A stretch of 64,000 bases of DNA from an uncultured Alphaproteobacteria bacterium (GTDB lineage Bacteria; Pseudomonadota; Alphaproteobacteria; RF32; CAG-239), in NCBI GenBank assembly GCA_944391475.1, contig CALXTR010000003.1, positions 50,823 to 114,822 of the forward strand, in the 5' to 3' direction. The notes below the pieces were generated by a model that was given only the letters and a program-made list of their open reading frames with translations, made no database searches and was not told where the DNA came from. Below are positions 1-4,433 of this stretch, piece after piece. Position 1 is the first letter of the stretch; the number at the start of each line of letters is the position of its first letter. A program made the translations under genes and the position numbers.

Positions 1-252
1 ATGAGGAGAACTAAGATGAAAAAATTAATGATTTTAAGCTTGGCCGCTCTAGTTTCAGCTTGCGCCTCTGCTCCTGAAAGAACCTACCCCTATGGCATGA
101 CAGAATCAGAATGGAGCGAACTTTCCATTCAAGATAAAGCCGCCATCAGACGTGATTTTTACTTTGTTGAAAAAGGCAAAATGAGCTTTGTAAACCCTGA
201 CCTAAAAGTTGAAGGCAAAAAAGAGGCAGTTCCCAATTTCCGCAAAGATTAA
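1..252 (+). CDS. Small lipoprotein. The ATG is at the window edge, so the true start could lie upstream.
   Basis: N-terminal signal peptide with lipobox LVSAC (MRRTKMKKLMILSLAALVSAC). An intrinsic terminator follows. Confidence 0.45.
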   Translation: MRRTKMKKLMILSLAALVSACASAPERTYPYGMTESEWSELSIQDKAAIRRDFYFVEKGKMSFVNPDLKVEGKKEAVPNFRKD

Positions 253-2577: not shown

Positions 2578-3450
2578 ATGACCAGCAGTATTTCAAGCAC
2601 TAGCAATGTAGATGAAAACGGCGTTGCCGGATGGGAAAAAAGCGTAACGGACGTTAACAATATTGATGAAAGCTTTGCCAATACCCGTGACCTTGGCTAT
2701 ACCCGTCTTAATTATTCACGTATCACCACCATTGCCCAACTTGGTGAATATAACGAACGAGATATATATAAAGTTCAAGTTCAATCTAATGGTAAATTAA
2801 GTATCAGCTTAAGAAATGAAGGCGTTGAAGAAAACGTATTGGATTTATCCGAATATGAGCAATATCTAGATGAACTCAAACAACAACTCGACCCCGAAGG
2901 ATATGCAGAAGAACAAGCAGCCCAAAAGGCCGAGCAAGAGGATTTAGATTTATTAGAAACCACCGCACCGGGGATGACCCTCAAAGTATATATGGTCAAA
3001 AACGGCAAAGAAGTATTAATTGCCGACAGCACTGCCGAAAAAGATTCGGAAGAGTACCAAAATATGTCTGCCATTTTGAGTGGAGACTATCGTGCCACCA
3101 AAGGAAATTATTATATTGAAGTCGGCAAAACTGAAGACGCCGACCCTAAGGCCGACCACCCCTATGCGATGCAAATTTTACAAGGCACCACCTACAAGCA
3201 TGATTACGTCATGACACAAAGTGATTCCGCCGATACCACCAATAAAGAAATATCGACCACCCAGGATACATCGCTTAATTCCACCACCGGAACTTCGGCT
3301 ATATCAGCAGCCTATGCTGCTCAAATTCAAGCTGTCCGCGATGAAGGAGCTGCCAATTTGCTGGCCTCTGGTGCTAGTAACCTATCATCACTTACTGCAG
3401 ATGATAGTAACAGCAATGCCACAGCCTTATTTTCAGCCTTATTGTCCTAA
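2578..3450 (+). CDS. Acidic hypothetical protein with a pre-peptidase C-terminal (PPC)-like domain and a Ser/Thr-rich tail
   Basis: RBS aaagga upstream. PPC-like pattern: ESFANTRDLG...IAQLGEYNERDIYKVQVQSNGKLSISL...GNYYIEVG. Acidic coiled linker and low-complexity S/T C-terminus. No signal peptide. Confidence 0.5.
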   Translation: MTSSISSTSNVDENGVAGWEKSVTDVNNIDESFANTRDLGYTRLNYSRITTIAQLGEYNERDIYKVQVQSNGKLSISLRNEGVEENVLDLSEYEQYLDELKQQLDPEGYAEEQAAQKAEQEDLDLLETTAPGMTLKVYMVKNGKEVLIADSTAEKDSEEYQNMSAILSGDYRATKGNYYIEVGKTEDADPKADHPYAMQILQGTTYKHDYVMTQSDSADTTNKEISTTQDTSLNSTTGTSAISAAYAAQIQAVRDEGAANLLASGASNLSSLTADDSNSNATALFSALLS

Positions 3451-3626
3451 TAGTGCTGATTAATCTATTCGTCTGAAAATAAACTTCCACTAGCTAACGC
3501 AAGTGGTATTACCTGTTCCGAACTACGTTCGCCCTGCCCAAAGGCTTCGCAAGCCTAACGGCTGGGCAGGTATGTCTACATCTACCTGCTTACGCAGGTA
3601 GTGTTACGTTCGAATCATAAATCCTT

Positions 3627-3684
3627 AACTCAACATAAAAAAAGAGGCCGACAAGCGACCTCATTTTTTATGGCGTACCCGGAG
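3627..3684. repeat. Partial direct copy of the tRNA-Arg 3' end plus its terminator (attR-like scar)
   Basis: ctcaacataaaaaaagaggccgacaagcgacctcattttttatggcgtacccggaggg is 57 of 58 identical to 3873-3930. Confidence 0.8.
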
Positions 3685-3872
3685 GGCTTGAGGATAAAAA
3701 CAACCGTTACTCCGGTTGTTTTTACCGCAAAAGGCGCAGTTTTCTTAACAAGCAAGGAATGCGTAAGCTTTCCGAAGCGAGATTAGGAAACAAGTGACCG
3801 CAGCGAGTTAGCGAACTTGTGAGCTTAGGAGCCAGAACGAACCCACGAGTGGGTTCAAATCCGCCGGGACTC

Positions 3873-3930
3873 AACATAAAAAAAGAGGTCGACAAGCGAC
3901 CTCATTTTTTATGGCGTACCCGGAGGGATT
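3873..3930. repeat. Direct repeat copy 2. It overlaps the genuine tRNA-Arg 3' end and its terminator.
   Basis: Same 58-mer as 3627-3684. Its 16 nt of tRNA 3' end continue into the full tRNA at 3912-3988. Confidence 0.8.
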
Positions 3931-3988
3931 CGAACCCACGACCCTTGGCGTCGGAGGCCAATACTCTATCCAACTGAGCTACGGGTAC
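3912..3988 (-). tRNA. tRNA-Arg (anticodon CCG)
   Basis: Reverse complement reads GTACCCGTAGCTCAGTTGGATAGAGTATTGGCCTCCGACGCCAAGGGTCGTGGGTTCGAATCCCTCCGGGTACGCCA. It has a 7-bp acceptor stem, a GTTCGAATC T-loop and the anticodon loop CUCCGAC. A hairpin plus T-run terminator follows. Confidence 0.85.
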
Positions 3989-4139
3989 ATTGTTATGACG
4001 AACCTCTTTTACATCACTTTTTTGCAAAATACCACAAAAATTTTCAATTTTAAGCAGATTTTTCTTGACTTCTCCGTCAAATATGACTATTAACAAGCCA
4101 ACAAGTTTATTTTATTGATTAATCATAAGGATAATAACA

Positions 4140-4433
4140 ATGTCTAAAAAATGTGATATCGCAGGCACCGGTGCACAGAGCGGAAACAACGTCAGCCACG
4201 CTAACAACCGCACTCGCCGTCGTTTTCTGCCCAACCTGCAGAGTGTTTCTCTCCTGAGCGAAACTCTGGGTAAAATTTTCAAATTAAAAGTTTGCTCCAA
4301 GACCCTGCGTTCCATTGAGCACAATGGCGGTTTGGATGCTTACTTGGAAAAAACATCAAATACCAAGTTGACTGAAGAAGCTAAAAAAATCAAAAAAACT
4401 ATTGCTAAAAGCAAAGCTTCTGCTCAAAAATAA
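4140..4433 (+). CDS. rpmB: 50S ribosomal protein L28
   Basis: MSKKCDIAGTGAQSGNNVSHANNRTRRRFLPNL matches the L28 N-terminal signature. Length is about 97 aa, typical of the alphaproteobacterial form. Confidence 0.88.
   Translation: MSKKCDIAGTGAQSGNNVSHANNRTRRRFLPNLQSVSLLSETLGKIFKLKVCSKTLRSIEHNGGLDAYLEKTSNTKLTEEAKKIKKTIAKSKASAQK

Follow-up and report, generated by a model that had tools for sequence, protein, structure and literature searches.

Does the end of a tRNA gene, found again with its terminator a short distance downstream, mark the place where an island was once integrated and later lost? The question is raised by the tRNA-Arg(CCG) gene of the window, the 64,000-nucleotide stretch of DNA analysed here. 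The original prediction took the repeat for an att-like scar, left by one integrative element that had been almost wholly deleted, with two neighbouring genes as possible remnants. The region 3628-3930 is probably a single unit of a tRNA-linked repeat (TLR). TLRs are small, non-coding cassettes rich in hairpins, and the class is assigned here by architecture and not by sequence descent. The element would be a new, alphaproteobacterial (type-C) addition to the known TLR class.

Layout of the repeat at tRNA-Arg(CCG)

The features of the locus are as follows, starting from the tRNA gene.

3912-3988, minus strand: tRNA-Arg(CCG) gene (ARAGORN; Rfam tRNA, 64.8 bits)
3869-3930: proximal copy of the 62-nt direct repeat, comprising tRNA nucleotides 58-76, terminator T1 and ACTCAAC
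3877-3911: T1, a bidirectional intrinsic terminator with stems at 3885-3891 and 3897-3903 (terminator scan, both strands)
3849-3868, minus strand: inverted copy of the 3' strand of the tRNA T-arm/acceptor, CCCGGCGGATTTGAACCCAC as against CCCGGAGGGATTCGAACCCAC in the antisense of the tRNA
3838-3857: hairpin H, in which an antisense copy of the T-stem/T-loop pairs with a sense copy of tRNA nucleotides 49-57 (GTGGGTTCG, minus strand)
3690-3836: type-C TLR core, with plus-strand ends CTTGAGGA...GAGCCAGA (alignments, nhmmer, covariation)
3671-3689, minus strand: distal copy of tRNA nucleotides 58-76, AAGCCCTCCGGGTACGCCA, matching at 18 of 19 positions, CCA included
3628-3689: distal 62-nt repeat copy, with terminator T2 (stems at 3644-3650 and 3656-3662)

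The direct repeat is real, although its dimensions differ from the 58 nt, 246 and 188 first given: the two copies are identical at 60 of 62 positions, start 241 bp apart and are separated by 179 bp. A repeat of 62 nt at 97% identity is far beyond chance. The tRNA share of the proximal copy is the last 19 nt of the gene (AATCCCTCCGGGTACGCCA, 3912-3930), from A58 in the T-loop to CCA. The 16 nt originally described as duplicated are indeed repeated exactly, and this 16-mer occurs at just two sites in the 64 kb window, one in each repeat copy, but the shared tRNA stretch is actually 19 nt long with 18 matches. From CCA, the block of identity extends a further 43 nt, made up of the bidirectional hairpin/T-run terminator and ACTCAAC. 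The terminator scan found this terminator in both copies, as had been predicted; at T1, the stems lie between an A-run and a T-run.

The TLR unit occupies 3628-3911, directly 3' of tRNA-Arg(CCG) and on the same strand, with the distal copy of the tRNA end forming its 3' end on the tRNA-sense strand. The inverted copy, at +44..63, has an alignment score of 14 against 7.1 +/- 1.3 for shuffles, and together with T1 and the 3' part of the tRNA it makes up a palindrome, I1, with arms of 43 nt. The sense GTGGGTTCG is found at +66; in E. coli units, the corresponding features are at +51..83. The perfect 8-bp palindrome that had been pointed out at this locus (gaacccac-ga-gtgggttc, 3840-3857) lies within hairpin H and is the same structure, and the bidirectional hairpin reported between the copies is likewise present at 3695-3724 (aaaaacaaccg...cggttgttttt), where it is terminator-like on both strands.

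Read along the tRNA strand, the proposed unit would run from tRNA-Arg(CCG) and T1 to the inverted T-arm/acceptor copy and a sense T-stem 5' part with TTCG, and then through a hairpin-rich core of ~150 nt to the copy of tRNA nucleotides 58-76 and T2. With this layout, the unit looks like a partial copy of the tRNA (nucleotides 49-76 plus the terminator) with a discrete cassette interrupting it at the T-loop.

The 179 bp between the repeat copies contain no integrase or integrase remnant, and the only ORFs there are chance frames; when read by eye, neither small ORFs nor a tmRNA-like tag in the interval were conserved between species. No tmRNA or other known RNA was found in the interval by ARAGORN, and Rfam gave the tRNA alone. 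A promoter scan of 3300-4200 detected no promoter-like site. By analogy with RtT and RrA/B/F of E. coli, a putative RNA of the unit would be made by read-through of T1, with the internal hairpin or T2 as its end point; its tRNA-like 3' end would be trimmed by the enzymes of tRNA 3' processing. Since T1 looks strong, with a 7-bp GC-rich stem and 7 U, such read-through may be low.

In strains that have no unit, the single terminator is found ~50 bp beyond the stop codon of a 290-aa gene (window 2578-3450) and thus probably serves both of the convergent genes. Each unit supplies a second bidirectional terminator between these two genes, plus a third terminator-like hairpin.

Related species and other tRNAs

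By its rpmB (L28) gene, which lies beside the tRNA, the window belongs with uncultured Alphaproteobacteria of gut and rumen. A scan was made of the 30 closest species representatives, in 24 of which tRNA-Arg(CCG) is divergent from rpmB. Units follow the tRNA in seven of these 24 species (L003, L010, L011, L014, L021, L026 and L029), with one to three units each, in arrays of up to 3 copies. The spacing is 177-211 bp, compared to 241 in the window, and L029 has two perfect 201-bp units. Units of type B occur in L003, L010, L011, L014 and L021, and units of type C in the window, L003, L014, L021, L026 and L029 (twice). The duplicated terminator is each species' own sequence, as seen in the window, L010, L021, L026 and L029. 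The 179-bp interval of the window aligns with type C over its whole length (nhmmer E = 3e-32), which makes it a complete unit and no deletion remnant. A deletion hybrid of B and C was also considered for the window unit and rejected, since the alignment gives full-length C; just the inverted copy adjacent to T1 resembles that of a B unit.

RNAalifold predicts five helices in the type-C core, the strongest being the conserved helices 3739-3753/3777-3791 and 3695-3706/3713-3724. Compensatory changes are found in 15 of the 37 predicted pairs, a number reached by 0 of 500 shuffles, and slid controls give 2-6. The RNAalifold energies of the two type-C strands are -18.8 and -19.9, and neither these nor a comparison of G-U with A-C counts clearly favours one strand. 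The core profile gives nhmmer E values between 3e-32 and 6e-22 in relatives, and of 8e-9 at tRNA-Pro(UGG) loci.

Among L021, L026 and L029, the core is 77-80% identical (80% for L021-L029), while the terminators are only 49-60% identical (60% for L021-L029). In the pairs that include L021, rpmB is 80-81% identical (80% for L021-L029) and the intergenic spacer between rpmB and the tRNA 58%; in the closer pair L026-L029, rpmB is 92% identical. In the L021 pairs, the ~150-nt type-C core is thus as conserved between species as rpmB. The cores of the window (3754-3830) and of L014 have an internal ~40-nt duplication of the motif CTAA(C/T)TCGCTGCGGTC, relative to L021, L026 and L029.

The cores are also found at other tRNAs. 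L017 has a type-B TLR after tRNA-Pro(GGG) (L017:7654-7985), with Pro-specific ends and a core that is 80.7% identical over 88 nt (E = 1e-14). Its 87-nt repeat (period 178) takes in 19 tRNA nucleotides, the terminator and the first part of the unit. The tRNA-Arg(CCG) of L017 carries no unit. The type-C core appears beside tRNA-Pro(UGG) in three faecal-virome and IMG/VR contigs (L226, L231 and L237). The core there is inverted relative to the tRNA and interrupts the tRNA copy within the anticodon loop. The anticodon arm is found first, as an inverted copy; sense nucleotides 26-37, the core and nucleotides 40-76 (37 nt) follow. The repeat in L231 and L237 is confined to these 37 tRNA nucleotides. 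The inverted copy of the window can be aligned, position by position, with the true tRNA-Pro 3' repeat of L226.

The core ends, CTKGAGGA...GAGCCAGA, are identical in the tRNA-Arg and tRNA-Pro(UGG) contexts. The presence of the same core, inverted, in a split copy of tRNA-Pro(UGG) indicates that it behaves as a discrete modular cassette, and the core is shown to be a conserved, folded module tied neither to one tRNA nor to one orientation. Because of the inversion, an RNA made by read-through at tRNA-Pro(UGG) would be the opposite strand, which weakens the idea of a single conserved sense-strand sRNA. In L231 (120-447), one type-C core follows another head to tail at the junction GAGCCAGA/AGAGGAAG, uninterrupted by a tRNA fragment or terminator; cores can thus duplicate by themselves.

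Comparison with the TLRs of E. coli and origin of the units

Repeats of 178 bp are known from E. coli tyrT. There are 22 TLRs at ten loci in E. coli, each ending in the same 18-19 nt as the tRNA or 5S gene that precedes it; they include rtT/rttR at tyrTV, rsX1-4 at serX and rpK at proK, and are represented in Rfam by RtT (RF00391) (PMC8144298). Although they have been known since 1978 (Egan & Landy 1978; Rudd 1999), no function or origin has been established for them (PMC8144298).

The E. coli loci serX and proK, when read directly, have the layout of the window, with the intrinsic terminator duplicated with each unit. The order at serX, proK and tyrTV is tRNA, (terminator), inverted T-arm copy, sense GGTTCGA, core, 19-nt AATCC...CCA and (terminator). 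The finer features in common are an inverted T-arm/acceptor copy at +41..81, a sense T-stem 5' part with TTCGA at +65..83 and a 3' fragment that begins at AATCC, and they are specific to the tRNA in each case (Arg, Pro, Ser and Tyr). The criterion of an inverted T-arm together with a sense T-stem/TTCGA was extracted here from serX, proK and tyrTV, not from the literature. Of the 12 TLRs examined, 11 have an inverted copy with a score of 10-17, compared to ~7 +/- 1.3 for shuffles and 5-8 at three TLR-free control sites, which lack these features. Short junction motifs, GGTTCGA/CT and GAGT/AATCC (the slash marks the junction), are common to the units of both groups.

Like the window unit, the E. 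coli TLRs are located directly after the tRNA, on the same strand, and carry 18-19 nt of the tRNA end from AATCC, and in both groups the period is 170-250 bp and arrays consist of 1-4 units. The units described here differ in their alphaproteobacterial host, in their association with tRNA-Arg(CCG) and in a core that has its own terminator-like hairpin and is also found inverted at an anticodon-loop split.

The cores themselves are not demonstrably related. Rfam RtT has no match in window 3300-4200 at E <= 10; it does match the B unit of L021 end to end on the tRNA strand, with 16.2 bits, where the gathering score is 45, and E = 2 (4227 families). The nhmmer profiles of B and C have no match at the E. 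coli TLR loci, and a Smith-Waterman comparison of the cores alone with those of E. coli was not significant (best 22/1000 shuffles). Since the core alignments are not significant, what is claimed is a shared architecture and not a proven sequence homology. A metagenome scan with the pattern GGGTTCNNNCTN{8,38}CGCTGCGGT returned 120 unrelated contigs and no true match, the pattern being too loose.

The RrA, RrB and RrF sRNAs are located between T1 and T2, the dual terminators of E. coli rrnA/B/D, and are made by read-through of T1 (PMC8144298). They resemble the window unit in lying between two terminators and in having as their 3' end a repeat of the final 18 nt of the stable RNA encoded upstream, and their proposed expression is by T1 read-through followed by RNase E-type processing at the repeat (PMC8144298). 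The upstream gene is 5S rRNA in their case and a tRNA here, and binding of Hfq and CsrA has been shown for RrA/B/F.

The TLR architecture in gut Alphaproteobacteria means that the phenomenon is no enterobacterial oddity. It provides several handles on the origin of TLRs: a new core with compensatory changes, cores that cross between tRNAs, a variant in the anticodon loop, and exact gain and loss. For annotation, a tRNA 3' end repeated a few hundred bp downstream need not mean an island boundary. A broader view, and a rather improbable one at present, is that TLRs are widespread non-autonomous cassettes across bacterial classes, which insert in the T-loop or anticodon loop of tRNAs and regenerate an intact tRNA end and terminator, the spare junction being a possible harmless landing pad for serine-recombinase prophages. 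Such a spare landing pad would spare the real tRNA gene, and the L237 prophage described below does sit in the spare copy.

How did the unit arise? One possibility is a mini integrative element, that is, a non-autonomous cassette put into the tRNA loop by a recombinase encoded elsewhere, from which a ~240-bp circle might be excised and re-integrate to build arrays. The T-loop and the anticodon loop are the two classical integrase sublocations in tRNAs, and the tRNA copies are split exactly there (58/59 and 37/40, respectively). The units, at 180-250 bp, are about as long as a lambda-type attP. The sharply conserved core ends in two tRNA contexts and both orientations, the polymorphism of presence and absence among strains and the restriction of the repeat to 37 tRNA nucleotides in L231 and L237 would all suit such an element. 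The units also resemble the attL/attR pairs of integrative elements in tRNA genes, and the non-autonomous derivatives of such elements (CIMEs), in their loop-starting direct repeat of the tRNA 3' end, their tandem accretion and, again, their presence/absence polymorphism.

However, no tyrosine integrase was seen near any locus examined, and the full loop sequence is not kept at both junctions (left TTCGA/CT, right GAGT/AAT), as conservative site-specific recombination would require. The repeat holds the species' own terminator in the window, L010, L021, L026 and L029, which an imported attP would not, and the different sequence after the distal CCA in L231 and L237 is explained by a serine-recombinase prophage. 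By comparison with attL/attR and CIMEs, the locus has no integrase, a host terminator within the repeat, a unit of just ~240 bp, no junction that retains the full loop sequence, and an inverted copy of the tRNA end. With splits centred on the loops and discrete ends of the core, a site-specific origin is still to be considered, but the mini-element is an unlikely explanation.

Even less likely is a neutral local rearrangement, in which template switching at the terminator hairpin gave a pattern of duplication, inverted duplication and duplication with filler DNA, a functionless product that persists by chance. The observed order of tRNA end, terminator, inverted copy, sense copy and terminator is the one to be expected from a double template switch at a quasi-palindrome, the unit-free strains are viable, and a strain of E. 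coli has been made without any of its 22 TLRs. Nevertheless, the architecture recurs in two bacterial classes and at at least five different tRNAs, the core is conserved like rpmB, with compensatory pair changes, and it has discrete ends and recurs at another tRNA. An origin by reverse transcription with stops at m1G37 or A58 was considered too and rejected, as it does not fit tRNA-Arg consistently and nothing speaks for it. A TLR unit remains the preferred reading of the locus.

Prophages at the tRNA end and variation among strains

The tRNA end is nevertheless used for integration. In L210 (1309-2838) and L211, which belong to the same species as the window, a large serine recombinase with Resolvase, Recombinase and Zn_ribbon domains is encoded by a prophage or island that abuts the CCA of tRNA-Arg(CCG); identity to the window starts at 3910, and T1 is missing on that side. 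The tRNA-side junction, at CCA and without T1, is the only one seen in these two strains. The same serine-recombinase junction at tRNA-Arg(CCG) is found in the IMG/VR contigs L221-L223. The recombinase ORF at this tRNA continues into the antisense of the tRNA.

A similar situation is found at tRNA-Pro(UGG) in L226 and L237, two members of one species whose sequences agree at 99% as far as the distal CCA of the TLR. Past this point, L226 (2997-3068) carries the duplicated terminator and L237 (10185-12310) unrelated sequence, with genes for DUF2924 and a large serine recombinase that begin ~0.6 kb past the distal CCA. The L237 prophage directly follows the distal (TLR) copy of tRNA-Pro(UGG), and the real tRNA and its terminator are untouched.

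The junction between the tRNA end and the terminator is a true attB for large-serine-recombinase prophages, and it is duplicated by each TLR unit. The joining point is the tRNA-CCA/terminator junction inside the repeat, both here and at tRNA-Pro(UGG). The 62-mer is about the size of a large-serine-recombinase attB. Serine-recombinase junctions elsewhere show no long repeat, and since serine recombination leaves none, it does not explain the 62-mer. The repeat here duplicates the attB and is not a product of its use. The att-like reading of the block, and of the tRNA 3' end as a real attachment site, is therefore borne out, but the 62-mer is not the scar of an island. No description of a TLR duplicating the attachment site of serine-recombinase prophages was found in the literature; a duplicated attB could matter for the choice of site by prophages.

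Strains with an identical L28 were taken to belong to the same species. Among these, L206, L209, L215 and L216 have no unit and one terminator, with the same flank of cysS, the 127-aa gene and the 290-aa gene. L213, L214 and L219 have a 37-bp 5' stub alone, and L207, L208, L212, L217 and L218 the stub plus a full unit, with a 99-nt repeat and a period of 239. L217 and L218 contain a further partial unit, which is joined to a truncated 290-aa gene and has an insertion of ~3 kb within it; their lineage thus once had two units. The differences between strains are shown to be exact gains and losses of units, as recombination between repeats would give, and the duplicated tRNA-end/terminator blocks to be substrates for homologous recombination.

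This variation also bears on the integrative element of the original prediction. Of the related strains, L206, L209 and L215 have empty sites, and the occupied sites hold the 241-bp unit alone. The 179-bp interval is a full-length unit that recurs in six other species and in tandem arrays, rather than the residue of one element. The 127-aa and 290-aa genes, proposed as its remnants, lie outside the repeat and are present in the unit-free L206, L209 and L216, as well as being kept in the strains with extra insertions (L217 and L218); the PPC domain ascribed to this flank could not be confirmed, neither protein having a Pfam match. The same kind of duplication is present in related genomes, with the 3' end of a TLR as its second copy, which is essentially what the prediction itself had named as speaking against it. 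That the repeat represents attL and attR of a large integrase island, later almost wholly deleted, is thus very improbable and largely refuted: the direct repeat of the tRNA 3' end, the variable flank downstream of the tRNA among strains and species and the recombinase-bearing island or prophage at tRNA-Arg(CCG) in L210, L211 and L221-L223 are as it would predict, but the interval is a complete conserved unit, the repeat reaches 43 nt into the host terminator, the recombinase is of the large serine type with a CCA junction that lacks a long repeat or T1, the two genes are found with or without the unit and carry no mobile-element signature, and no element with the 62-mer was found in phage and plasmid collections.

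The ~3-kb insert in L217 (6324-9460) and L218 (5263-8400) lies in the second TLR copy, carries genes for a 143-aa, an HxlR-family and a 202-aa protein, and has CAGA on both sides. A deletion at an AAGCT microhomology, with window position 3338 joined to 3765, has removed the distal part of this second copy as well as the 3' end of the 290-aa gene. The window and L209 have an intact 290-aa ORF, which is found in pieces of 97-133 aa in other strains (L206, L216 and L217 were compared); the ORF seems to be undergoing decay in part of the species.

Another difference between strains is a highly structured segment of 133 bp at window 3484-3616 (z = -4.6 and -5.0 on the two strands), which has ATAAA on both flanks and is missing from the sister strains L206, L209 and L216. 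It has no match in Rfam. Homologues that are 74-80% identical are found in three unverified faecal-virome scaffolds (L224, L225, which has an internal duplication, and L227), where they are likewise bounded by ATAAA and have no tRNA nearby. The segment resembles an insertion of the MITE type, perhaps an IS200/IS605-like one that has subterminal hairpins, or else a small RNA gene.
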